Shown piece by piece: positions 9,279-63,753 of a stretch of DNA of 64,000 nt (position 1 is the stretch's first letter; each line of letters begins with the position of its first letter). Location of the stretch: the sequence record PZ168832.1, one strand, 5' to 3'. The DNA comes from a phage. The notes beneath the pieces were generated by a model. It was not told where the DNA came from, did no database searches, and saw nothing but the letters and a program-made list of their open reading frames with translations. Both the position numbers and the translations under genes were made by a program.

Positions 9279-9580
9279 GTACAGAAGCGATGAAGAAAAA
9301 GATTTTGAACGCTTTGCAAGAAGGCGTGAACTGTGGTGCTATCAAAGAGTTTAATGAGGCGCAAGTCAGCGGAGAGAATGCAATAGGATTTAGTAATAAT
9401 AAAGGCGGCATCGCCGCAATCCTTTTGTTAAACAACACCGATGATAAGTTTATACTTTACGTCGGAGGGTATGAGCTTGTTGTTGATGATTTATTCATCA
9501 CTTGTGCCGACGGCCTTAACCCTATGTTGACATTTGAACGTTGCGGAATTCGTGTTGCAACGTTTGGAGGGAATTTATGA
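9275..9580 (+). CDS. hypothetical protein
   Basis: ORF track. Confidence 0.4.
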   Translation: MSTEAMKKKILNALQEGVNCGAIKEFNEAQVSGENAIGFSNNKGGIAAILLLNNTDDKFILYVGGYELVVDDLFITCADGLNPMLTFERCGIRVATFGGNL

Positions 9581-9762
9581 GTACCGAAGTCCATAACGCT
9601 TCAGCACTGGTGAGCTTTTACCGCAACAAAGGCGTGTCACTCGTTAAAACGCCGCAAGGCATGCTGTTCTTTGGCACGCGCTTCCTTAAGGCTTCGGAGC
9701 GTGAAACGCTGTCCAAGTTTGACCAGAAAACATTGCACGCAGTTTGGAGAAGACAACAATGA
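9577..9762 (+). CDS. hypothetical small protein
   Basis: In-frame ATG of track ORF 9541..9762 (ATGA overlap). Confidence 0.3.
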   Translation: MSTEVHNASALVSFYRNKGVSLVKTPQGMLFFGTRFLKASERETLSKFDQKTLHAVWRRQQ

Positions 9763-11476: not shown

Positions 11477-11898
11477 TACAACGTTACGACCTGACATATG
11501 ATGTGGTATCAGAAGATTGCGCCATCACTCCCGTTCCAGAGAGTCATGAAGGACGTTTTGTTGAATATGAGGACTATGCTGCGCTGGAAGCGAAATATAG
11601 TGAAGCGCAACGCGAGTTGGTTGCATTACGCTCACAGGTCCGTGATGCGTCGGCGCTTGTTAAGCAGTTGCACGACGTCGTTGCTACTATAGGCGTGGAT
11701 GATGATGCACCGAAGGAGGAAGCGTGGACCGTGTGGCTTGGTGGAGATAATCCGGTGCCTGGGAAGATGGTTGAGTTTGAATTACTCAACGGTTATAAAT
11801 CAAAAGCTGCCGTTCCTTCGGACAGTTTGACATGGGATAAAGTCACAAGCCCGACTGGTGCAAAGATTATTGCCTATCGGGTCGTTAAGGAGGGGTGA
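11473..11898 (+). CDS. hypothetical protein
   Basis: In-frame ATG of track ORF 11461..11898. Confidence 0.4.
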   Translation: MIQRYDLTYDVVSEDCAITPVPESHEGRFVEYEDYAALEAKYSEAQRELVALRSQVRDASALVKQLHDVVATIGVDDDAPKEEAWTVWLGGDNPVPGKMVEFELLNGYKSKAAVPSDSLTWDKVTSPTGAKIIAYRVVKEG

Positions 11899-12388: not shown

Positions 12389-12880
12389 GCCTGTGGAATG
12401 TGAGGCTTTTGTGGTTATTTACGATTCAAGGCTGTAATTTAAGAGAGCGAAAATATTATAATAATTTATCAAGATTATTGCATATTGTGGCAATCAACGT
12501 TTATACGTATTTATGACAGTTTAATCCACTAAATAATACGGATAGAACAGTGAGGAAAATACAGCGGTGTATTTTAGTGTAAATATTGAATCAAAAATAA
12601 ATAATTATGGTGCTATTATATACGCAGATTGTTTGTAATTTATAGGATATTTTATCGTGGAGTATTGGCTAACGGTGCGTTAGCCGTGGGTCTTGGTGCT
12701 TGTGGTGTTGATGCTCAGAATTTTAATAATGTTTTAGTTTTAGTAATCGTAGTCAATGATGATACGTATAAGAAAATGAGAGTCACCCCTTCACAGGATA
12801 TTGTACCGTGGCCCTGTGGTGCGCCGCGCCTGGGATTGCTGGTATACACTGGTGCTATTTTGCCGCGAAGGCAGTCATTC

Positions 12881-13210
12881 ATACGTATCATGACGTATCA
12901 TTGGGCTATTGATTTATAAGGAAAAATACGCTGATACGGATGATACGGGTGCAAACATAATATATATAGAATTCCAGAAAATTAATTAACTCCATTTTGA
13001 ATTAATTTAAATTAATTTTTTTCTACATCCTCATACTTATACTAAACTTATATTTATACGTATCATCCGTAAGATATAAGTAAAAACAAAGACTTGCGGC
13101 AATACGGATGATACGTCATGATACGCTTCAACCAGCCATCTGCGGCTAAGTCATTGATTTGCATAACAAGCGGCGAAAGGGATGGATTTCTTTTATACGT
13201 ATCAAACAGT
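12881..13210. repeat. iteron region A: CCGTATCAT / ATGATACGG copies in alternating orientation around an AT-rich core
   Basis: acgtatcatgacgtatcat (~12883), gatacggatgatacgg (~12933), AT-rich core with gaattc and attaatttaaattaattttttt, cgtatcatccgta (~13059), atacggatgatacgtcatgatacg (~13102), tatacgtatca (~13196). Confidence 0.6.
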
Positions 13211-18594: not shown

Positions 18595-20952
18595 TTATTT
18601 CGCTGCTTTCAGCGCGGCTATCTCTGCCTTGAGTTCATCTATCTGATCCATCAATGCAAGAATAGCCTCGTGGTGCAGTGCTGCTGCTACACCTGGTGTG
18701 TTGACAGATTTTATGTTATCCAACGTCGAACCGTCGCGCAGAGTAACAGGCGATGACTGTGTTTCAGATACTGCTTCAGGAAAGTCTTTCTCTACATCCT
18801 GGGCGATGAAGCCAAAACCGACGGAGCCATTAGTTTCCAGAGTCCATGCCACGCCTCTGATGTTGCGCATCTTGACAAGTGGATCAGTGATCCGCTCAAT
18901 GTTACTTTTAATACGTTCATCAGATATACTCCGCCACTCCTGACACCTTGCTATTCCATCGGAGCCAAAAAGATAAGAGGCCGCGCCGCCTGTCCCGCTG
19001 TAAACGTTCAATTGCGCGCGGTCCAGCGTGGTCGTGCTACTCCTTATGCCTCCGAGAATCCAGCTTCCACTGTACCAGTCACCGCTGATTGAGTTTACAA
19101 AATTTCCTTCTGGAACGTTGGCATAGTTTTGAATCCTTATGGCGTTGTTTTCTGCAGCAGCAACGCCTACTGAATTAACTGGGGATGCAACAAGGTCTTT
19201 AGACCGGATATATGCATCAACAACTATTGTCCCATCAGGGCGCAGAGTTCCAATCTGGGATGTGGAATTCGGCAACACCAATTTGCCATCTTGGTTAAAT
19301 GCCCACTCTTGCACCCCATTAGATATCACAGCACCTTGTTCAGACGTCAATCCATCAATTTTGCCGTATGCCTGCAAGAATGCTTGATACGCGATGTTCG
19401 TGCCAATCTTATATTCAGATTTTACACTACCGCCTCTGACAAGCATTCCGGCTGCAGGTTTTACTGCGTCGCCGTTAATCACACTCCAAGAAGTATTCGC
19501 GGCAACAAATCCACCCGATGCACGAATCACCCAAACGCCAACAAAGTTGCGACCCATGATTTCGTCAGTTGCCGCTCCATAAATCGGGCTTGATCTGGAT
19601 GCATCAATATTTATTGTATTGAGACGCCCCTCTACTGCCCCGCTTCCAACAGGTATGGTGTCGCCAGCGCCTTGGGGGTACAAATCGTTGTTTGTGTAAA
19701 AAGCACCTCGGACGGCTGTGCCAAAGATTTGCGCATAAGTGCCTGCCGATACACCAGCGGCTGAGCCTGTGATGTTTGGTGCAGCAGATTCAAATATTTG
19801 ACCGTTCGCAGTGGAGTTGCCGCCATCACCGCGCCCGTAAAGCGCCCGTACAGAGCCTGTCTGAACACCGTTAAGGTCTGGGACACGGAATGTCGTTGTG
19901 CCGTTACCTGAAGAATATTTTGCACGTTTGAACTTATCCGCAAGCCAGTCGGCATCTGCGATGGGCGAAAGCATTTGCGCATACGCCCAAAGTTCAGGCC
20001 AGTCAGCACGGTTTAGCAATTGCCCGTCTGCAACGACTTCGTATGGCTGAATATATGATCTACTATTGCGAAGATGGAAATCGCCAACACCATAGTTCAT
20101 GACGCCGTTCATACTTGGACCAACGGTGCCTGTGTTTACTAAGTTTTCAACCCAACGCTTAGTCGCGGCATCATAATCATTTACAGGGTCGCCAGCGAGC
20201 GGCGTTGATCCTTGTGGACGGATGTTTAGCCACGCCTGAGCATTATCTGCAGAGCCTGTGCCGCCCATTGAAGTTGGAACGATGCTCTGATCAGCAACAG
20301 GGCCGAATCCAAAAGCAGACTTCATCCCTTGGATGGTAGTTTGCCCTGTGCCGCCGTTGGCGACTGGGATGACAGATTTACTGTTGTATAATTGCGCCCA
20401 TTGACTCCAAACCCCATTTACCGCGTTGTAAGTCCTTTGGTATGTAACATTGTTGTAATATGTTGAGTATCTTTGGACGCAACTTTCTATTGATGGTCCA
20501 GTTTTTAGGACTTCAAGGACTCCTGCTTGTGAAACTGGGTAATTAAGAACAGTCTGAGCATCTGCATTGAAGTCTTGGAAATAATTTCCAAACCAAGAGC
20601 CTGTCAGAAAGTTGAGATTTATCCCAGAAGGAAGTTTGCCATAATTTCTTACAACCCCTGTTAAGGTCGCAGCAGTGTTACGAATAGAAAGCATGTCACC
20701 AGCAGACCATGCACGCGCTGCCGTACCTTCTTGTGCGCGCTGCACGGTCAGGACGTCTCCAACCACGGCTGTCACTGTGACAATTTCGAATTGGCGGCCT
20801 GTTGCAGCGTCGACGATTGTCGCCACTACACGCTCGTTCGCGCCCAAGGTCGGAAATCCCGACCCTGAGCGAATTGTGATTGTGGTGTCTGAAGTCGTCG
20901 TTGGTTGAGCCAGCGCGACCTCAAAGTTGTTTTTGAATATTAGCCTTGGCAT
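18595..20952 (-). CDS. tail spike/fibre with C-terminal intramolecular chaperone (peptidase S74-like) domain
   Basis: 785 aa; fibre-like Gly/Ser/Thr/Asn-rich repeats, YDAATKRWVEN motif; C-terminal SDERIKSNIERI...GFIAQDVEKDFPEAV followed by a coiled-coil tail, the hallmark of self-cleaving chaperone domains. Confidence 0.8.
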   Translation of the reverse strand: MPRLIFKNNFEVALAQPTTTSDTTITIRSGSGFPTLGANERVVATIVDAATGRQFEIVTVTAVVGDVLTVQRAQEGTAARAWSAGDMLSIRNTAATLTGVVRNYGKLPSGINLNFLTGSWFGNYFQDFNADAQTVLNYPVSQAGVLEVLKTGPSIESCVQRYSTYYNNVTYQRTYNAVNGVWSQWAQLYNSKSVIPVANGGTGQTTIQGMKSAFGFGPVADQSIVPTSMGGTGSADNAQAWLNIRPQGSTPLAGDPVNDYDAATKRWVENLVNTGTVGPSMNGVMNYGVGDFHLRNSRSYIQPYEVVADGQLLNRADWPELWAYAQMLSPIADADWLADKFKRAKYSSGNGTTTFRVPDLNGVQTGSVRALYGRGDGGNSTANGQIFESAAPNITGSAAGVSAGTYAQIFGTAVRGAFYTNNDLYPQGAGDTIPVGSGAVEGRLNTINIDASRSSPIYGAATDEIMGRNFVGVWVIRASGGFVAANTSWSVINGDAVKPAAGMLVRGGSVKSEYKIGTNIAYQAFLQAYGKIDGLTSEQGAVISNGVQEWAFNQDGKLVLPNSTSQIGTLRPDGTIVVDAYIRSKDLVASPVNSVGVAAAENNAIRIQNYANVPEGNFVNSISGDWYSGSWILGGIRSSTTTLDRAQLNVYSGTGGAASYLFGSDGIARCQEWRSISDERIKSNIERITDPLVKMRNIRGVAWTLETNGSVGFGFIAQDVEKDFPEAVSETQSSPVTLRDGSTLDNIKSVNTPGVAAALHHEAILALMDQIDELKAEIAALKAAK

Positions 20953-53448: not shown

Positions 53449-54309
53449 TTAAAACTCTTCTGCGTCGGTCGGAGTTTCATTGACAGGACCAGCGGCACCG
53501 CTTGCTTCTTCCTGCTTGCTGCGGTCGATGTTAACGTTACCGCCAACTACGTCGTTGTGGAATGCCTTGGCGACTTCGTACAGGCCTTTGTCCTGCACCA
53601 GACCTTCCAGCTCAAACTTCAGAACAGACCAGGTGTTGCCGTCTTTGGACTGGGATGCAGTACCCATGCGAACGATGTTCATAAAGGTCGGCGGCGTTTT
53701 CAGACCCTGCGGAGTCTGAACTTTCTTCTGCTGCAGCGCGGTCATCAGCATGCGAGACGGCTTGATCATGGAAGAAGTCAGAGACAGCATTGCGCTACCA
53801 AATTCACCAGTTTCTTCGTTCAACAGAATCACAAAGTGGTTGCGTGTATCTGCGTAGTAAGGCGATTTCTTCTCGTGCACCTTGCCGTTTTCGTCTGGCA
53901 CAAACACCTTACCGTTGATCTCAACAGCGCGGCCTGCCGCGACTTCTGCATCAACGTGCTCTTTGGTGAATTCACCTTTAAAGCCTTTATCGTCGGACTC
54001 GCGACCGCCCCAAAGAATGAAGGTGCGTTTGAATGCGCAAGGGATGATCTGCACGCCTTTCTTGCCGTCATACAACTCACCAGTAACGGTGTTGTAAAGC
54101 ATGCCAGCTTTTGCGCCAGGAACGTGTTTTGGATCATCTTCGTCGACCATAGGAGACATCTTCTGCAGTACGACGATAAAAGGAATGGCATACGCATCGG
54201 CATCGGCACCTTCAAAACCAGCGCCAAAATCGGTCATGTCGACAAAATCAGCCATAGCGGACATCTGGGTGTTTTTCACTGCAACTTCGGTGGTTTCTTT
54301 CTTAGACAT
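53449..54309 (-). CDS. possible single-stranded DNA-binding protein
   Basis: 286 aa; acidic C-terminal tail ending in Phe (...ETPTDAEEF), as in T7 gp2.5-type SSBs; replication-operon context. Weak. Confidence 0.3.
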   Translation of the reverse strand: MSKKETTEVAVKNTQMSAMADFVDMTDFGAGFEGADADAYAIPFIVVLQKMSPMVDEDDPKHVPGAKAGMLYNTVTGELYDGKKGVQIIPCAFKRTFILWGGRESDDKGFKGEFTKEHVDAEVAAGRAVEINGKVFVPDENGKVHEKKSPYYADTRNHFVILLNEETGEFGSAMLSLTSSMIKPSRMLMTALQQKKVQTPQGLKTPPTFMNIVRMGTASQSKDGNTWSVLKFELEGLVQDKGLYEVAKAFHNDVVGGNVNIDRSKQEEASGAAGPVNETPTDAEEF

Positions 54310-55260: not shown

Positions 55261-56784
55261 TTAATTCATCTTTTTGCCGTCGAGGATGTGATCAGCAAGC
55301 ATAGATTTCATGCTCAGTGAACGCTGAATTTCTTCGTCGATGGTATCAACGCCAATAAAATCAACATACAACACGCTTGATTTGGTGCCGATGCGGTGAT
55401 TTCGGTCTTCGGATTGCTTGCGCAACTCGTTGTCATAGTTGCAAGAATAATAGATTGCCAAGTCGGCGGCTGTAAGCGTGATTCCGATGCCTGCCGCTGC
55501 AGCGTGACAAACAAGCACTTGCGTCCCACCGTTCTCGACTGTGTTCTTCTGGAAGTCATCAATCAAGAACTCACGCTGCTCTTTTGACGTCTCACCGTTA
55601 TATAAACCAGTGACCACTCCTTCAGACTCAAGCCAATCCTTAATCTGGTTCATCTCTTCCTTAAAGATGGCCCAAACAATGAATTTGCGCTCTGGGTCGT
55701 CTTCCAGCACCCCTTCCACATAGTCCTTAAAGGCCGTGAATCGTGGGTTGTCTTCCATGTAGACCATCTCATCATACACCTTAACAAAGCCTGATGTAAC
55801 CTGCTTCATCTTAGTGCGAGATGCGATCATCTCAAACTTAACGTTTTCTTCTTCGCCCTTGTATTCCATCAAATAGTTGTACTCATTCTTGAGTTCATCG
55901 TAGACATCGCGTTGTTTAGGCGACAGCTCGAAGTCGATAAACTTATACACCTTCTCTGGAAGGTCAGGCAAGTATTCCGCTTTTGTCGCACGAAAATAGT
56001 GCGGTTCCATCAGCCGGATAAGCTTGTCAAGGTTTTTGTACATCGGTCGGCCAAACTGGTCTTTGCGCGGCACTTGCGGAATCCCATGGCCATTGCCGCC
56101 GATTTTCTTGAGAATGGCCTGCATCTCTGGGTCGTGCGCTTCAAGCAGCACCGTGAATTCAGAATTGAATGCACGGAACGATTTTGTGCCAAGCAAGCCA
56201 GCTTCAAGGAAGTGATACTGCATGTAAATATCAGCAGGCGAGCGCGGCAGCGGCGTACCGGAAAGGATTCGACGGGCCTTTGCCAGCCGTCCCAATTCCA
56301 CAACCTTGATGGAGCGTTTGGCTGTGTTATTTTTGATACGCGTCGATTCATCAATGATCATCAAACAGCGGTACTTCTTCAGGACGGACTCAATGTGTTG
56401 ATAACCGACTGGCGTATTCACCGTATCAATGTTGAATGAGAAGATGCGCGCAGGCACTTCACCTTCAGGGTAGTGATCAGCAAACATCTTCTCCCAAAGC
56501 GCCTTGCCCTTTTTAGTCTTCATCTTGTCATTGCCGCGCCAGTAATGCCCAATCCACTTGATGGAAAGGTGTTCTGGTGCTTCACGACGAATCCAGTTTG
56601 AGTGCACACCGTTAGGAGCGATGACAACCATGGCATCAAATGCGCCAGCGGCGAAGTGTTTTTCAAACTCTGCCAAAGCAGTCCAGGTTTTGCCAAGACC
56701 CTGCTCCATGAAATAAGCAAAGTATTTTCTGCGGCCTGCTTTATCAAGCGCCAATAATTGGTGGCGCATTCCTTGTGTTTTCAT
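55261..56784 (-). CDS. SNF2-family ATP-dependent helicase
   Basis: 507 aa; Walker A MEQGLGKTWTAL, DExx box MIIDESTRIKN, C-terminal helicase domain. Confidence 0.8.
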   Translation of the reverse strand: MKTQGMRHQLLALDKAGRRKYFAYFMEQGLGKTWTALAEFEKHFAAGAFDAMVVIAPNGVHSNWIRREAPEHLSIKWIGHYWRGNDKMKTKKGKALWEKMFADHYPEGEVPARIFSFNIDTVNTPVGYQHIESVLKKYRCLMIIDESTRIKNNTAKRSIKVVELGRLAKARRILSGTPLPRSPADIYMQYHFLEAGLLGTKSFRAFNSEFTVLLEAHDPEMQAILKKIGGNGHGIPQVPRKDQFGRPMYKNLDKLIRLMEPHYFRATKAEYLPDLPEKVYKFIDFELSPKQRDVYDELKNEYNYLMEYKGEEENVKFEMIASRTKMKQVTSGFVKVYDEMVYMEDNPRFTAFKDYVEGVLEDDPERKFIVWAIFKEEMNQIKDWLESEGVVTGLYNGETSKEQREFLIDDFQKNTVENGGTQVLVCHAAAAGIGITLTAADLAIYYSCNYDNELRKQSEDRNHRIGTKSSVLYVDFIGVDTIDEEIQRSLSMKSMLADHILDGKKMN

Positions 56785-57203
56785 GACAATTCCTCTAAAT
56801 ACTTGATGATGTGATGAATAGTTCCCTTCACGATTATCTCACGTTGAACGTCTGCAGTATTATAACGCTTTAATTCAATAGAAGGGTGGACTAAATAAAA
56901 CATCTTCTCAGAATCAACCTTAAGCAAAACGAATGATGGGTATCGCCAATCATTCCACGAAGAAAGGAAGCTGCACTGTCCTTTCTCAAATGCATTTCTG
57001 AAAGGTGCAGTGGTTGCCCTTGCAGGCCACGATTCAAAGAACTTCATTTCAAGCCAAAAGCCGCGCCCTTTCCGGTTGGTGCCGATTACGTCCGGCACGC
57101 CATCACCAGTCATTGACTCGATTCGTTGAAGCTTCAATACCGATTCTGAATGCTTCTTCAAAGGCACGAATATGTATTTCTGCTCACGGTTATTTGTTGC
57201 CAT
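56781..57203 (-). CDS. VRR-NUC-type PD-(D/E)xK nuclease
   Basis: 140 aa; GVPDVIG ... WLEMKF pattern; directly downstream of and overlapping the SNF2 helicase gene. Confidence 0.5.
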   Translation of the reverse strand: MATNNREQKYIFVPLKKHSESVLKLQRIESMTGDGVPDVIGTNRKGRGFWLEMKFFESWPARATTAPFRNAFEKGQCSFLSSWNDWRYPSFVLLKVDSEKMFYLVHPSIELKRYNTADVQREIIVKGTIHHIIKYLEELS

Positions 57204-60087
57204 CTGGATACACCTGTTTGATCACGTCAACGATGAACATGTCAATGCCTTCAAGCTTACGACCTTTCATCAGGAAGAATGCGCCGTTCCCGACGTTTTC
57301 AGCAATGTACTTCCCGTACTTCTGGAACTTCTCTGGACGAATCCTGAAGCGCATTGGCGAGTCGGTCGAGTCGTCTTTGCACATAAGGTCGATGAACTGA
57401 GTCTCAAGCTTGTTCCCGTACTGGTCAAACTCTGCGTAGCGGCCATCAGCTTGAAGACCCTTTTTAAGCTTTCCGTACTTTGTATAAATGCCGCGCTCAA
57501 GACGTTTGCGGATGCGTGTTGCTTCGTTCTCGTCTGCAAGCACTTTCTTTGTCAACTTGCCGATTACTATTGCGCGCTCGTCATCACCGACTTCCTTCAT
57601 CTGGCGTATTGAAGCGCCGGACGTCACGCCAATAAGATAAGGGTCATTATACGCCCAGCCAAACTTTGTGTGCATCTCTGTAAGGTCGCCGTATTTGACT
57701 TCAGCATTGGCCAATGCATCCTTTTGCTTTTGCGTTAAGGTTCCGGCTTCACGTGCTTCGATATACTTCATCGCCTTCACCATTCCGTACCCTTTCGCGT
57801 TCATGATGCCGCCGATTAGCTTTCCGTTCGCGATGGTCCAGTTCATTGAAGAGTGATCAGGGTCGATTGGCACATAATCCACGCCTTCCTTCGCAAGTTC
57901 ACGTAATATCGCAATCGTCTGGTCTTCATCCTTGGCAGCGCGTAAGCAGGCAGCGGCAAATTCCAACGGGTAGTGTCGCTTAAGCCACAAGGTCCAGTAG
58001 GTCACGACCGCGTATGACACGGAGTGTGATTTGTTAAAGCCCCATGACCCGAACGTAGCCATCGCTTGCCAAAGCTTTCTTGCATCCGCTTCCGGTACGC
58101 CGTTATTGATTGCGCCTGCAACAAAGTCCTCGCCAAGCTTGTTAAAGTATTCTTCACCCTTACGGCCTGACATCGCCTTACGGACAGCGGACGTTTTCGC
58201 CCAGTCAAATGAACCAATCTCTTTAACCACGGCCATGATTTGCTCTTGGTAAAGAAACACGCCGTAAGTCTCTTTTAAGTACGGCTCAAGCTGCGGCACG
58301 TCGTATTCAATCGGCGCACGCCCTGCCGCGCGTTCAATGTATTTCTGGGCCATACCGGATGACAACGGGCCAGGTCGACCCAAAGCCGTCAGGTTGTCGA
58401 TTTTGTTAAAGTTATCGACGTGCACAAAGTTTGTTACTGAGCGTACAGCGTCGCCTTCAAACTGGAAGATGCCTGACATCTTGTTTTCGTTAAGAATGTC
58501 AAGGACGCTTTGATCATCAAGCTTGATGCCGTAGAGCGTTTCAGCATCAATAACGCCTGTATCAGAAATAATGCCGAGAGTACGAAGGCCCAGCGCATCA
58601 AGCTTCAAAAGGTTAAGGTATTCGCTGTCAGGCTTATCGATTTGTGCAATCCCTTCTGCAGTTACAGTACAGTAATCAGAGATTGGGTCATTACACACAA
58701 TGATTCCCGCTGCGTGAACACCTGTGTGGGACGGGTGAATCTCAAGGTCACCCATGCAACGCGCGGCGTCAGGATATTTCGCCACGAACTCTTGGCCCGT
58801 GGTCGTTGTTGCAAAGGTATCCTCCAGGCCGTGACCATAACGGGCGTCACCGGATGAGTATTCAAGCAGTGCGTTTTTAATGTTGGCCGTTTCGTGGTAT
58901 CCAATGTTGAACTTCTTACCAACCTGCGCCATTACTGAGTTGGCCTTAAGCGTGTTGATGTTGCCAAGCTTTGCAACGTTCATTTCGCCGTATTTCTCTT
59001 TAAGGTAATCAAACACCATGTAGCGTTTGGTATCTTCAAAGTCGATGTCGATGTCAGGAAGGTCGGCGCGGCTTACGTCGATGAATCGGGCAAACAGCAG
59101 CTTATACGGGATTGGGTCCACTTCCGTGATGCCGAGGCAATAGCAAACAAGTGAACCAGCCGATGAGCCGCGAGCAGGACCGACGAGCATTTTTGTTTTT
59201 GCGAATCGTACAAGGTCCGCTACTACCAGAAAGTATGAGTCGAAATCTTTCAGCTGAATCTGGTGAATTTCTTCGTTGAAGCGGTCCTCATATTCCTGAG
59301 TCCATTCTTTGATGTGACCTGCTTTGAGACGGTACTCCATCCCCTCACGCGCAAGCTTTACCATATCACCAGCAAGGTGAATAATCGGTGCCTTGCGTAA
59401 TTTCAGGTCAAGTCCGACTATGCCGTTTGCTATGTCAACAGCATTGGCCGTTGCCTGATTCAGCTCATCTTCCGTCAAGATGCCTTTAAGCTGTTTGCGC
59501 AAGTCTTCCGCGTCAACGATGCAGTGCGGCTTGACCGTGTCGCGCACTTCCCAAGCATAAGCAAAGTCAACGTGCTCAGGTGAAGGCATGTGGTTGTATC
59601 CGGTTAAAACCAGCGGCCTTCCACCGCTACGATGAGCCAATGCCTGGCGCTTTGCCAAAAGGAACGATGATGGGTTGACGTCTATATAGTCGTAGTCCTC
59701 TGGCCGCAGCAACTCCACGGCACCGCCACAGAATTTAACGACGCCATCGAGCGCACCGAACTCTGCACGGGTAAGCCCACCGCGCTGCGTTGAAAGTGTT
59801 GTCGCGTTGTAAAAAGATTTTAAGTCAAGGGCCAATATCCAAGCCTTCGGTTTGAATCCCTTTTTAGGGTCCGCATCAGGGTCGATGATTGGAATCTCCA
59901 TCCCAAACATAGGCTTAATATCATTTTTCTGGCATTCCTTTTCCCAGCGAACGTGACCCCATGTGTTGTTATCAACTAATGCCGCGACTTCGCAGCCCAA
60001 CTCTTTGAGCCGTGCTATAATTTCAGGATGCCGTCCATAAACTTCTTTGAACGTGTAACCGCTGCAAACTCTCAATTGTGGAAACAT
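57190..60087 (-). CDS. DNA polymerase III alpha subunit-like (DnaE-type) replicative polymerase
   Basis: 965 aa; N-terminal PHP-like region; GPARGSSAGSLVCYCLGITEVDPI...DIDIDFE matches the DnaE palm motif. Confidence 0.85.
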   Translation of the reverse strand: MFPQLRVCSGYTFKEVYGRHPEIIARLKELGCEVAALVDNNTWGHVRWEKECQKNDIKPMFGMEIPIIDPDADPKKGFKPKAWILALDLKSFYNATTLSTQRGGLTRAEFGALDGVVKFCGGAVELLRPEDYDYIDVNPSSFLLAKRQALAHRSGGRPLVLTGYNHMPSPEHVDFAYAWEVRDTVKPHCIVDAEDLRKQLKGILTEDELNQATANAVDIANGIVGLDLKLRKAPIIHLAGDMVKLAREGMEYRLKAGHIKEWTQEYEDRFNEEIHQIQLKDFDSYFLVVADLVRFAKTKMLVGPARGSSAGSLVCYCLGITEVDPIPYKLLFARFIDVSRADLPDIDIDFEDTKRYMVFDYLKEKYGEMNVAKLGNINTLKANSVMAQVGKKFNIGYHETANIKNALLEYSSGDARYGHGLEDTFATTTTGQEFVAKYPDAARCMGDLEIHPSHTGVHAAGIIVCNDPISDYCTVTAEGIAQIDKPDSEYLNLLKLDALGLRTLGIISDTGVIDAETLYGIKLDDQSVLDILNENKMSGIFQFEGDAVRSVTNFVHVDNFNKIDNLTALGRPGPLSSGMAQKYIERAAGRAPIEYDVPQLEPYLKETYGVFLYQEQIMAVVKEIGSFDWAKTSAVRKAMSGRKGEEYFNKLGEDFVAGAINNGVPEADARKLWQAMATFGSWGFNKSHSVSYAVVTYWTLWLKRHYPLEFAAACLRAAKDEDQTIAILRELAKEGVDYVPIDPDHSSMNWTIANGKLIGGIMNAKGYGMVKAMKYIEAREAGTLTQKQKDALANAEVKYGDLTEMHTKFGWAYNDPYLIGVTSGASIRQMKEVGDDERAIVIGKLTKKVLADENEATRIRKRLERGIYTKYGKLKKGLQADGRYAEFDQYGNKLETQFIDLMCKDDSTDSPMRFRIRPEKFQKYGKYIAENVGNGAFFLMKGRKLEGIDMFIVDVIKQVYPDGNK

Positions 60088-60629
60088 TATTTACTCCAGA
60101 TGTCATATATGCCAATTTGTTGGCAGACTTTGTGCAGTAATATTACGTCGTCTAATGCACGGTGTTTCTGTTCATATTTTCCGAAATATAATTCATACAG
60201 CTCTTGAAGCTTAACTCTTCGGCCAAAAATAGGCAAGGTTTGCTCAACTGTACAAATGTTTATTTCTGGAAAATTAACATCATCAAGCGTAAGTCCTTCG
60301 CGCTGTAGTGCATAATCAAGAATGTTTTTATCGAACGCATGGTTGTGCGCGATAGTGGCATCCGTCTTCTTGAAGATTTCTTTTAGCTGCGGGACAAAAT
60401 TGATGAATGGTGGATTGCACTCAAGGTCTTCATTTGTTAATCCGGTAATCTTTGTGATAATTTCTTCAATCACGATTTCAGGATTAATTATGAATTCAAA
60501 CGTTTCAAGAATCTCTTTGCCGTCTGTCAACAGACCTGCAAATTCAATAGGGCGCGGCTGCATCCCAAGCGGCGCTTTCGGGTGCACGGTCAATCCGGTT
60601 GTTTCGAAGTCATAAGGGAGAAATAACAC
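60087..60629 (-). CDS. DnaQ-like 3'-5' proofreading exonuclease
   Basis: 180 aa; Exo I YDFETTGL, Exo II HNHAFDKNIL, Exo III HRALDDV. Confidence 0.85.
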   Translation of the reverse strand: MLFLPYDFETTGLTVHPKAPLGMQPRPIEFAGLLTDGKEILETFEFIINPEIVIEEIITKITGLTNEDLECNPPFINFVPQLKEIFKKTDATIAHNHAFDKNILDYALQREGLTLDDVNFPEINICTVEQTLPIFGRRVKLQELYELYFGKYEQKHRALDDVILLHKVCQQIGIYDIWSK

Positions 60630-60683
60630 ATTAGCCTCCTACAAAAAGGCCGCCCATTAGGACGGCCACAGATTCACGATTTG

Positions 60684-61235
60684 TTATACAGTGTACGGAG
60701 TACCGTCTTGATTCAACCGCACGATGAATTTAAGGTCGACACCGATGATTTCACGAGTATCAAAGATTACATAGTTGTAACGACGCTGACCAGCAATGTT
60801 TGGGTTGGTGTGAGAGTCGGTCACAACTTCCTGCGCAACCTGAATGCCTTCTTCTTTAAAGAACTTGCGCCATTCAGCAAGTTCAGCGGCAGTCACGTGC
60901 ATACCAAGATGGCTAACCTGATTGTCGTGCGCATCGATGTATTCGATGTTTTCGTGAATCCAGTTGCAACCTTTTGTATAGTCAAGAATTTCAAGCTCAA
61001 GAGGCTTACCAGCGCCGCCATCGGTGCCGTTGCCAGCCTGATAGTTGAAGCGCAAGTCAGCTTCGTTGGTGCAATCGCCGCGCTGACCCTTAAAGACATC
61101 AGCTTCAAATACGCGACCAGTAGCAACAACGTGATCATGGAACCATTCTGTCAGGCCGATTTTAGCCAGGAAATTCTGTGCGCGCTGAGCACCTGGAATT
61201 GACAGGGCGATTTGTTCAATTTTAAAATGTGGCAT
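60684..61235 (-). CDS. hypothetical protein (183 aa)
   Basis: ORF track; no confident family assignment; hairpin plus T-run on minus sense lies between it and dnaQ-like gene. Confidence 0.4.
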   Translation of the reverse strand: MPHFKIEQIALSIPGAQRAQNFLAKIGLTEWFHDHVVATGRVFEADVFKGQRGDCTNEADLRFNYQAGNGTDGGAGKPLELEILDYTKGCNWIHENIEYIDAHDNQVSHLGMHVTAAELAEWRKFFKEEGIQVAQEVVTDSHTNPNIAGQRRYNYVIFDTREIIGVDLKFIVRLNQDGTPYTV

Positions 61236-61331
61236 TTTGTTTCCTTAATTAAATATTATTGATTAATTACTTTGTTGTCTTCGTCCTGTTTCTTTTCAGG
61301 AGCGGGTGTGACAACCTCAAATTTTCGTGAT

Positions 61332-62015
61332 TTATTTACCGAATGGAATATCAGTACCAGACATAAAGCGCCATGCGCCCGTAATTAAGATATGGCGAAT
61401 GAAGTCAGCAATTACTTGCGGCTCAGTCTCCAATCCATTCATCAGTGCCTTTTTCTGGTATTCAGCAGCGTATTCAGGAGTCCAGCCGCGAGTCGCGCAA
61501 ACAGCATCTTCAATCTGTTTGGACATGCCAGTACCACGTAGCTTGTTAGGACTAATAGAGAATACCGTGATCCCGTATTTAGGCGTAAGCTCGTGAGCCA
61601 TCTGCTTGCTAATCATGAGCGCAGCAGCCTTGGAAGCATTATAACACAAGCTGGACGTCATAGGAATATGCGCAGCGTTGGAAACGATGTTGATCACAAA
61701 ACCTTTGTTGTCAATAAGACTTTTCAGCGCGGCCTGAGTCGTGTTGACGAAAGAGAAGGCGTTGGTGTGCATAACGCGATTGAACTCTTCGTAGTTAACA
61801 TCTTCGAACCAGTTGTTGGAGTTGACGCCAGCGCAGTTGATCAAGCCTTCTACGTCGTATTGAGAGAGAAGCTCTTTCATCTGTTTCGCGTTACGGATGT
61901 CATAGCCGTTCTCCAAATCAATACCGACAACTTCATGACCGTAAGCGCCAAGGGTGTCAAAAATGGATTTACCAAGACCGGAATTGCAGCCAGTTACAAC
62001 AATTACTTTTTTCAT
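61332..62015 (-). CDS. short-chain dehydrogenase/reductase (SDR) family oxidoreductase
   Basis: 227 aa; VTGCNSGLG Rossmann motif and YNASKAA catalytic Y-x-x-x-K. Confidence 0.75.
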   Translation of the reverse strand: MKKVIVVTGCNSGLGKSIFDTLGAYGHEVVGIDLENGYDIRNAKQMKELLSQYDVEGLINCAGVNSNNWFEDVNYEEFNRVMHTNAFSFVNTTQAALKSLIDNKGFVINIVSNAAHIPMTSSLCYNASKAAALMISKQMAHELTPKYGITVFSISPNKLRGTGMSKQIEDAVCATRGWTPEYAAEYQKKALMNGLETEPQVIADFIRHILITGAWRFMSGTDIPFGK

Positions 62016-62038
62016 TTATTTATCCTTTTTGGACTTCG

Positions 62039-62072
62039 TTTCGATGAGATAAATATAACTCATCGAAACGCA
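62039..62072. promoter_or_regulatory. perfect 12-bp inverted repeat (cgtttcgatgag ... ctcatcgaaacg) with 10-bp AT-rich spacer
   Basis: Read directly in the intergenic gap between the HAD and SDR genes. Confidence 0.3.
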
Positions 62073-62080
62073 CAAGTAAA

Positions 62081-62953
62081 CTATTTATTGAAATTAATAT
62101 TATGGGTGTTAACAAGACGTTCACACATGGCGCTGTAAACACCATCATCGTGTATAGAGTCTTCGTGCTTCAGGCCGCTGATTGCGAAGCGTGTAAGCTT
62201 GACAATCTTAAGCTCGAACAGATGCCACATGTGGTAGTCTTCCGGCGTTTTCAACGTCACGCCATTAGGGAAAAGCACTTGCATAACCTGACCTACCATC
62301 ACAGCGTTATCGCCATAGACAGCGTTGCGCTCACGGAAGGTTGCTGCCATTGCATCAAGAATATCAGCGGCAGTTGCCGGAGATTGTCCAACTTCCACAG
62401 CCTTAGTCTCTTCTTGCCCTGTTGCGCTTGGATCAATTGCTAATTGTTGCACCACTTCACCTGCCTTGCAAAGATTAAATGTAAAAGCGATTTTATTTTG
62501 AGCAACGGAATTATAATACAATGCTTCATCTTGCATCCGCGCGAGTACGTCTTGTCGGTCGTCGAATACATTGATGATTCGATAATCGCCGTGCCGCAAA
62601 GCGTGCGATAGCCATGCAGATTTCATAATAGTTGATGGACGTTTGTCGCCATAGTCTCTCATCTTGATTGTAAATTCATCAAAAGGAAAAACATTGTCCA
62701 GACGTTCAAAAGTCACTTGTCTGTATTTTTCTGGCCTTGCAGTCCAATATTCAACCGCCTCACCGCGAAGAGATGCCGACTCTACTGCTGATGCAATGTG
62801 AGGATAGAACTGATCATAACCAATACCGCTGTGATAATCATCATAGTCTGACAACGGACCTGCCACCTTAATGCGGTCTAAGCGCCAACGATCATCAAAC
62901 AGCGTTCCGTCAAGGTCGAATACGTTTAAGATTTCGCTGTTTTTAATGCTCAT
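62081..62953 (-). CDS. HAD-superfamily phosphatase (possible nucleotidase) with extra C-terminal domain
   Basis: 290 aa; motif I VFDLDGTL. Confidence 0.55.
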   Translation of the reverse strand: MSIKNSEILNVFDLDGTLFDDRWRLDRIKVAGPLSDYDDYHSGIGYDQFYPHIASAVESASLRGEAVEYWTARPEKYRQVTFERLDNVFPFDEFTIKMRDYGDKRPSTIMKSAWLSHALRHGDYRIINVFDDRQDVLARMQDEALYYNSVAQNKIAFTFNLCKAGEVVQQLAIDPSATGQEETKAVEVGQSPATAADILDAMAATFRERNAVYGDNAVMVGQVMQVLFPNGVTLKTPEDYHMWHLFELKIVKLTRFAISGLKHEDSIHDDGVYSAMCERLVNTHNINFNK

Positions 62954-63753
62954 CCTTTTGATACTCCATCTTTAGCAACTGGATTGTTGGTGATTGGCAT
63001 CGCATTCCAAAACTGGATGCGCAACTCTTCTTGCTGTGCCGTAGTATCCATCCAATCACGATACCAAGGGCAATGGGCTTTTCCATGACGAGGAAACGCG
63101 CATTTACCCATACCGATGCATTGCGGCTGTAATAATGGATTTGCCCACGGGTGCACCTTGAGGACTTCCGCAACCATTGCGCGGAATACTTCTTGATACT
63201 CGCCTTGAGTGCGCGTGCACAAGCGGTTTGACGCCATCTGCTGCAGCGTGCGCAAGTTGAACTTTGCCATGATATGCGTTTGCATATTAGAAGGCAACAC
63301 GGCACGTGCATCTTGAATCTCTGCGCCAGCCGCGCGAAGCTCTTGGTAGAGGGCGTCAATCGTGGCCATCGCATCATCCCATTTCTCTGCCAGTTCAGCG
63401 GCCTTCTCGTCATGACGAGTCCATCCCTTTGGATCATCCTCTGGGTAAGTGAATTTAGCAGGACGAATCGCATCAAATGCAGACGACTCCTGAGCGCGGC
63501 TGGTGCGTTCTTGATATGCACCTGTGCGTGTGCGTACCATCTGATGAGTCATATTCTTTGATACAGCGGTGATGTCAAAGATATAGTCCACAAAGTCAAA
63601 AGGCGACTTGATGGTGTCAAGCATATAGCGCCAATGCTCTTGCTTCTCTGATTCCGTCATCTCAGAGACAGGCTTACCAGTCATGCGCGTGTTCTTTGTT
63701 TCCAGCAAAAGGTCAAGTGCATCTTGGGTGTATCGAATTAATTCAACTTTCAT
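62950..63753 (-). CDS. ThyX-like flavin-dependent thymidylate synthase homologue (divergent)
   Basis: 267 aa; HQMVRTRTGAYQERTSRA resembles the ThyX signature region but with RTR where I recall RHR. Confidence 0.45.
   Translation of the reverse strand: MKVELIRYTQDALDLLLETKNTRMTGKPVSEMTESEKQEHWRYMLDTIKSPFDFVDYIFDITAVSKNMTHQMVRTRTGAYQERTSRAQESSAFDAIRPAKFTYPEDDPKGWTRHDEKAAELAEKWDDAMATIDALYQELRAAGAEIQDARAVLPSNMQTHIMAKFNLRTLQQMASNRLCTRTQGEYQEVFRAMVAEVLKVHPWANPLLQPQCIGMGKCAFPRHGKAHCPWYRDWMDTTAQQEELRIQFWNAMPITNNPVAKDGVSKG

Follow-up and report, generated by a model that had tools for sequence, protein, structure and literature searches.

A DnaE-type DNA polymerase and an overlapping DEDDh exonuclease gene form the putative replicase of an Escherichia coli Wifcevirus

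The sequence record PZ168832.1, of which a 64,000-nucleotide (nt) stretch, referred to here as the window, was analyzed, carries two overlapping genes on its minus strand at 57190-60629, initially annotated as a bacterial-type replicase. Both open reading frames (ORFs) are present at these positions and encode proteins of 965 and 180 amino acids (aa), respectively. The longer protein is a DnaE-type C-family DNA polymerase, and the shorter one, encoded immediately upstream, is a predicted DEDDh 3'-5' exonuclease of the DnaQ/RNase T superfamily. The TAA stop codon of the exonuclease gene and the ATG start codon of the polymerase gene share a single base (TAATG), which reads as a layout typical of translational coupling. 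Taken together, the evidence presented below makes it very probable that the phage has a replicative DNA polymerase of its own, which these genes encode as two polypeptides.

The source is an Escherichia coli phage belonging to Wifcevirus. The 3.4-kilobase (kb) stretch matches 29 E. coli/Shigella phage records at 94-98.5% nt identity, including those of the Wifcevirus myophages WFC, WFH, vB_Eco4M-7, SP13, ECML-117-like phages, and BASEL phages Bas98-101; the same genes occur in WFC, WFH, vB_Eco4M-7, SP13, and Bas98-101 with no difference of substance. Bas101 is the closest complete genome. It is collinear with the window, the whole ~68.7-kb genome being covered save for ~3.2 kb, and the GTG start of the exonuclease is annotated identically in it. 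The gene pair itself is already known. Wifcevirus GenBank records, which comprise dozens of relatives, label the polymerase as "DNA polymerase III alpha subunit" and its partner variously as "DNA polymerase III subunit epsilon", "DEDDH exonuclease", or "DNA polymerase exonuclease subunit", and alpha and epsilon are likewise named in Pbunavirus records.

The polymerase was assigned by profile, sequence, and structure comparisons. It matches Pfam DNA_pol3_alpha (PF07733; E 3e-63, 214 bits against a cut-off of 23.9), the finger domain PF17657 (E 1e-37, 129.5 bits against 22), PHROG 405 "DNA polymerase" (2.9e-269), and NCBIfam TIGR00594 (475 bits against 434), which places it among the polymerases and not in a non-polymerase PHP-domain family. 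Comparison of DnaE and PolC profiles confirmed the DnaE type: DnaE1-type models score 494 and 475 bits and the DnaE2 model PRK05672 scores 330 bits, whereas PolC models reach only 42-45 bits. Among solved structures, Pol III alpha of Taq and of E. coli is matched with E-values of ~1e-85. Agreement at these levels lies well outside what chance would produce. The DnaE palm motif described in the initial annotation, GPARGSSAGSLV...DIDIDFE, was located at residues 303-351. In a BLASTP alignment with E. coli K-12 DnaE (33% identity over 625 residues; phage residues 208-798), the catalytic residues D345, D347, and D497 align to D401, D403, and D555, and this triad is invariant in all 75 homologues of the family alignment. 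Furthermore, hhalign placed residues 3-784 on E. coli DnaE 5-857 with a probability of 100. An AlphaFold2 (AF2) model built from the 75-sequence alignment (predicted local distance difference test (pLDDT) 87.4; predicted template modelling score 0.79) superposes in Foldseek on full-length Mycobacterium tuberculosis DnaE1 (7pu7; E 1e-50, TMq 0.74); the DnaE structures of Taq and E. coli follow with E-values of 1e-44 to 1e-49, compared with just 1e-27 for PolC.

The N-terminal PHP domain is recognizable by its fold, with hhalign placing residues 3-240 on E. coli DnaE 5-290 and the modeled region yielding secondary Foldseek matches to the PHP structures 4gx9 and 7ug9; its Pfam score of 24 bits falls under the 26.4 cut-off. 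Column statistics over the 75 homologues indicate that most metal ligands have been lost. The HxH motif is replaced by R6 and C8 (R and R/C in the family), the motif-3 His by W83, and the D-x-H motif by H166 (D/H in the family) and P168, leaving E64 and D39 as the only canonical ligand positions retained. The PHP domain is therefore predicted to be catalytically dead across the family and, with its metal site degenerate, would not provide proofreading.

Downstream of the Pol3 core, the AF2 model contains helices at residues 769-781, 786-793, and 804-819 that form a (HhH)2-like region, the first hairpin of which aligns to E. coli DnaE residues 836-857. This region is followed by a domain with a beta-beta-beta-alpha-beta-beta topology (pLDDT ~80-90). 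Because hhalign of residues 770-965 against E. coli DnaE 830-1160 gave nothing meaningful in either global or local mode, its assignment as an OB fold derives from the model and from weak secondary Foldseek matches to the RPA, Teb1, and OBody OB folds (E 0.04-0.2). No sequence-level counterpart of E. coli DnaE 858-1160 was detected in the phage protein. Its chain stops 6 residues past the OB fold, and nothing aligned to E. coli DnaE residues 1000-1160, so a tau-binding C-terminal domain (CTD) is absent. The uninterrupted PHP domain and the position of the OB fold C-terminal to (HhH)2 correspond to the DnaE order, not to the PolC order, in which an OB fold is N-terminal and the exonuclease lies within the PHP domain. 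The data thus support a DnaE-type C-family polymerase with the order PHP-Pol3-(HhH)2-OB and no tau-binding CTD.

The exonuclease matches Pfam RNase_T (PF00929; 9.6e-22, 78.7 bits against a cut-off of 24) and PHROG 192 "DNA polymerase exonuclease subunit" (2.5e-37); among solved structures, the closest to it is the Thermotoga maritima PolC proofreading domain (2p1j). As initially noted, it contains all three DEDD motifs, which were mapped against E. coli DnaQ (24% identity): DFETTG (D7, E9), HNHAFD (D100), and HRALDD (H156, D161). These five residues are invariant in 121 family sequences. The best NCBIfam matches are generic DEDD, PolC-exo, and DinG-exo models; the DnaQ cut-offs are not reached (TIGR01406, 43.8 against 222.7; TIGR00573, 37 against 71.5). 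The protein ends at residue 180, equivalent to approximately residue 186 of E. coli epsilon, which is the end of the catalytic domain, and its homologues are uniformly short (177-209 aa in 120 of 120). The description of a stand-alone epsilon-like subunit consequently stands for the DEDDh catalytic domain and not for the remainder of epsilon, given the missing alpha-binding tail and the unreached DnaQ equivalog cut-offs; the sequence comparisons support a predicted DEDDh exonuclease that is epsilon-like in its catalytic domain only. At the C-terminus, residues 172-178 are conserved as [ILM]-G-[VLI]-[YF]-[DE]-[AI]-[FWL] (window 60090-60113, minus strand, for residues 172-179), with G173 present in 117 of 121 sequences and Y/F175 in all 121. 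This motif occupies the position of the clamp-binding QTSMAF of epsilon, and the canonical Gln is not conserved. The motif could be structural, could dock on the polymerase, or could represent a degenerate binding motif for the host beta clamp. Reading the segment QIGIY as a Qxx[LMI][FY] clamp motif was considered and downgraded to a lead, since its Gln is not conserved in the family. The positions of all features are listed in Table 1.

Table 1 Features of the polymerase-exonuclease locus and its surroundings
Feature	Position	Strand	Remarks
DnaE-type C-family DNA polymerase, whole gene	57190..60087	-	965 aa, ATG start
PHP domain, ~residues 1-240	59368..60087	-	Fold retained, metal site degenerate
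Pol3 core: palm, thumb, fingers, ~residues 241-760	57808..59367	-	
Catalytic codons	D345 59053-59055; D347 59047-59049; D497 58597-58599	-	
(HhH)2-like helical region and linker, ~residues 761-837	57577..57807	-	AF2 model helices
C-terminal OB-fold domain, residues 838-959	57211..57576	-	AF2 model
DEDDh 3'-5' exonuclease (DnaQ/RNase T superfamily), putative proofreading subunit	60087..60629	-	180 aa, GTG start
Shine-Dalgarno AGGAGG, 5 nt upstream of exonuclease GTG	60635..60640	-	Read from sequence
Terminator-like GC-rich hairpin (8 pairs, 7 GC) then TTTTTGT, just upstream of exonuclease	60648..60667	-	Consensus scan
140-aa gene, 14-nt overlap with polymerase 3' end	56781..57203	-	PHROG 2165 "DNA helicase", E 4.7e-35
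SNF2-family helicase/translocase, 507 aa, same operon-like string	55261..56784	-	SNF2-rel_dom 2.2e-21, Helicase_C 8.9e-11, PHROG 62
DUF7307 (Pam3 gp33-like) protein, 185 aa	54369..54926	-	Pfam PF23984, E 2e-36
Pam3 gp34-like protein, 286 aa, annotated hypothetical	53449..54309	-	OB-type core residues 44-255
183-aa protein, faint glyoxalase-like match	60684-61235	-	
FabG-like short-chain dehydrogenase	61332-62015	-	
290-aa protein, PNKP-type HAD phosphatase domain and unassigned C-terminal half	62081-62953	-	
ThyX-like thymidylate synthase	62950-63753	-	
Bas101_0051 (331 aa) and Bas101_0052 (279 aa)	L002 7460-9430, just past window end		PHROGs 4828, 4765

The arrangement of the two genes is conserved beyond Wifcevirus. 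Both their order and the stop-start overlap are kept in Pbunavirus at only 55-60% protein identity, Wifceviruses being distant relatives of that group (PMC11990801). In PB1-like Pbunavirus phages, such as phage chunk (gp55/gp56 being its exonuclease-polymerase pair; ~58% protein identity), the gene order is identical, and the corresponding segment comprises ThyX, PNKP, the epsilon-like exonuclease, the alpha-like polymerase, a small ORF, an SNF2 helicase, two conserved unknowns, and a ligase. Polymerase homologues with 55-99% identity reside on ~60-74 kb contigs and in phages of Pantoea, Serratia, Luteibacter, Xanthomonas, Burkholderia, and Pseudomonas; exonuclease homologues were found on contigs whose lengths equal those of the polymerase-bearing ones, and no fused exonuclease-polymerase form occurs among 120 polymerase homologues. 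Because the two proteins share just 33% and 24% identity with E. coli DnaE and DnaQ compared with 55-99% with phage homologues, the pair is a phage module of long standing that was passed down vertically and was not recently acquired from the host. A tblastn search across 50,697 phage records identified polymerase relatives in 1414 (2.8%); 376 of these are full-length and make up this clade. The remaining matches cover the core only and are mostly "DnaE-like" polymerases of actinophages and Bacillus phages. A C-family polymerase with a separate exonuclease is thus a minority solution in phages, yet a familiar type, and its initial characterization as a less common solution was fair.

From these features we infer a complex of the two proteins, in which the exonuclease proofreads and which serves as the phage replicase. 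The exonuclease would be translated just ahead of the polymerase from one mRNA with the 1-nt stop/start overlap. The 965-aa protein would then synthesize DNA at a two-metal site formed by D345, D347, and D497, while the 180-aa protein would act in trans as its 3'-5' proofreader, the role of epsilon towards alpha in E. coli. Other replication proteins identified by Pfam and PHROG include a RepB-type AEP primase, a VapE/D5-type NTPase, a Dda-like SF1 helicase, the SNF2 helicase, and a ligase; the pair would work with these and with a phage SSB (a protein that binds single-stranded DNA), not with a Pol III holoenzyme. The replicase role is suggested because the 965-aa protein is the sole DNA polymerase annotated in Bas101, and the conserved overlapping gene pair is the single observation pointing to a complex.

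Several results weigh against this interpretation. The polymerase does not reach the DnaE equivalog cut-off, its best model, PRK05673, scoring 494 bits against 1002. A search with Pfam and PHROG of the replication-region proteins of Bas101, together with its unknowns of at least 140 aa, revealed no clamp and no AAA+ clamp-loader family; structural checks for a clamp-like fold took in the sizeable replication-region proteins other than Bas101_0051 and Bas101_0052. A regular-expression scan detected no Q-type clamp motif (Qxx[LMIV]F) anywhere in the polymerase, which leaves room for a non-canonical motif. The exonuclease lacks both the alpha-binding segment (E. coli epsilon ~190-243) and the canonical clamp motif QTSMAF. 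C-family polymerases are poorly processive alone, so part of the mechanism is missing. In addition, the literature searched contained no biochemistry on any phage DnaE-type or C-family replicase, only annotations and uses as a phylogenetic marker, and phage DnaE is not discussed in two surveys of bacterial C-family polymerases. The designation as a bacterial-type replicase accordingly holds as far as a DnaE-type polymerase with a separate exonuclease; with no clamp or clamp loader found, the system is not a miniature Pol III holoenzyme.

Among the alternatives, the one that survives best, though unlikely, is that the DEDDh protein is an independent nuclease, for example one involved in degradation of host DNA or RNA, end processing, or counter-defense, and that its adjacency to the polymerase gene reflects mere operon packing. 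DEDDh domains have many functions, and the missing epsilon-type tail, the unreached DnaQ equivalog cut-offs, and the predominance of generic DEDD, PolC-exo, and DinG-exo models would all be compatible with such a role. However, retention of the stop/start overlap across the divergence between Wifcevirus and Pbunavirus argues for a functional pair, as does the occurrence of exonuclease and polymerase homologues on contigs of equal length. The predicted inactivity of the PHP site would leave the polymerase with no other proofreader, and the closest Protein Data Bank match is itself a proofreading domain, that of PolC.

Somewhat less likely still is the possibility that the polymerase is a DnaE2-like error-prone, repair, or accessory enzyme and that the host Pol III holoenzyme performs the bulk of phage replication. 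Like DnaE2, the phage protein has no tau-binding CTD (PMC3919608), and it shows no recognizable clamp-binding motif, nor has a phage clamp or loader been found. On the other hand, DnaE1-type models outscore the DnaE2 model, a conserved proofreading-type exonuclease partner is the opposite of an error-prone design, the imuA/imuB partners are not present, and the protein is the only polymerase of a virulent phage that has its own primase, helicases, SSB, and ligase. A recent capture of E. coli dnaE and dnaQ is barely credible: although the host has counterparts of both genes and proteobacterial DnaE1 shows a similar PHP degeneration (PMC3919608), the identity to the host proteins is far below that to phage homologues, including those on phage-sized contigs of ~68-72 kb, and the architecture differs in lacking the CTD and the epsilon tail.

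Returning to the two-polypeptide replicase, a more specific proposal is that the Wifcevirus/Pbunavirus enzyme constitutes a minimal, self-contained C-family replisome without a sliding clamp or loader, which we regard as possible but on balance doubtful. Under this proposal, processivity and retention at the fork would be provided by the OB domain of the polymerase, the acidic ...AExF tail of the SSB, and the phage helicases. In a variant of this scheme, the host beta clamp would be recruited solely via the conserved C-terminal motif of the exonuclease. A very short infection cycle is attributed to Wifcevirus in work cited in PMC11990801, and a clamp-free C-family enzyme, if confirmed, could underlie it.

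The phage enzyme was also compared with characterized systems. It resembles the E. coli Pol III core in combining a C-family polymerase bearing a dead PHP domain with a separate DEDDh proofreader, and it shares the catalytic triad and the PHP-(HhH)2-OB fold. In contrast, E. coli alpha contains a tau-binding CTD and an internal QADMF-type clamp motif, and epsilon contains QTSMAF and an alpha-binding C-terminal segment, none of which is present in the phage proteins; genes for the holoenzyme theta subunit, clamp, and clamp loader were likewise not found for the phage. An inactive PHP domain, with proofreading left to epsilon, is characteristic of alpha-, beta-, and gamma-proteobacterial DnaE1 (PMC3919608). 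The PHP-Pol3-(HhH)2-OB order without a CTD was described by Timinskas et al. for DnaE2 and a subset of DnaE3 and DnaE1 (PMC3919608). The phage chain similarly ends after the OB fold, and DnaE3 shares with it a disrupted PHP metal site (PMC3919608). Bacillus subtilis DnaE3 is kept at the fork via the SSB C-terminal tail, according to work cited in PMC3919608, and the phage SSB-like protein with its acidic ...EEF tail offers a parallel. DnaE2 and DnaE3, however, are accessory enzymes beside a main replicase, whereas the phage enzyme is the only polymerase and its profiles favor the DnaE1 type. In some Bacteroidetes DnaE1 proteins, the exonuclease is fused N-terminally to the PHP domain (PMC3919608). 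This order, exonuclease then PHP-polymerase, matches that of the phage genes, but the Bacteroidetes protein is one polypeptide with a ~60-residue linker and the phage has two.

Among phage enzymes, the DnaE-like polymerases of actinobacteriophages (Mycobacterium, Gordonia, Streptomyces) and Bacillus phages show 29-37% identity by tblastn over the Pol3 core, and only this core (~residues 245-780) aligns. Pbunavirus polymerases are longer (~1035 aa) and carry an extra K/E/A/L-rich insert of 50-90 aa between (HhH)2 and OB that the Wifcevirus enzyme lacks. This insert is charged and helical, probably forms a coiled coil, and contains no Q-type clamp motif. Longer polymerases with an insert at this position are encoded at L005 6001-9045 and by homologues P0048, P0050, P0052, and P0103. 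A different insertion was observed in two metagenomic homologues, P0095 and P0115. It is ~255 aa long, begins with Cys, ends with HN, and interrupts the conserved FNK|SHS motif at a site corresponding to window ~58027-58032 (polymerase K686/S687); in P0115 it carries the Pfam intein domain PF14890. Both insertions are inteins, located near the classic DnaE intein site.

Immediately downstream of the polymerase lies a 140-aa gene, a position also occupied by a small ORF in Pbunavirus. The encoded protein is too small to be a helicase despite its PHROGs and GenBank label. A motif identified by eye, GVPDVIG...GFWLEMK, indicates that it may be a PD-(D/E)xK nuclease, and this PD..ExK-like motif suggests a nuclease partner for the adjacent SNF2 helicase; neither Pfam at E<5 nor a Protein Data Bank sequence search supported a VRR-NUC or PD-(D/E)xK assignment for this ORF. 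Further along the same strand, the DUF7307 gene is the conserved partner of the SSB-like gene, which encodes the 286-aa Pam3 gp34-like protein. The latter is OB/SSB-like and not a ring-shaped clamp, has an acidic tail that is disordered and whose last residue is an invariant Phe (...TDAEEF), and is most likely the phage single-stranded DNA-binding protein.

The hairpin on the other side of the locus may represent the boundary of a transcription unit comprising the exonuclease, polymerase, nuclease, and helicase genes. It was detected in a consensus-based scan for promoters and terminators that was compared with shuffled sequence, in which the region yielded 12 terminator sites against 11.9 expected, that is, no enrichment. 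Directly upstream of the exonuclease, window 60684-63753 (minus strand) contains a run of nucleotide-metabolism-like genes. Past the window end, the conserved unknowns Bas101_0051 and Bas101_0052, which have no Pfam match, are flanked by the Dda-like helicase and the ThyX region. Four stretches of the window, 9310-9758, 11490-11712, 12410-12931, and 18630-19839, had no megablast match to Bas101; they contain small early genes and a tail-fiber segment and probably reflect isolate variation in accessory genes and the receptor-binding domain. A considerable resistance of Wifceviruses to restriction has also been reported (PMC11990801).

The finding itself adds little, as alpha- and epsilon-like genes are already named in the GenBank records of Wifcevirus and of the therapeutically used Pbunavirus. 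What it describes is a phage polymerase without any of the known elements by which bacterial Pol III is connected to its clamp, clamp loader, and proofreader. Understanding how a 965-aa DnaE and a 180-aa exonuclease would replicate a genome of 68 kb could delineate a minimal C-family replisome, and would assign functions to conserved "hypothetical" genes, such as those of the SSB-like Pam3 gp34 family, which has members in more than 500 phage genomes.

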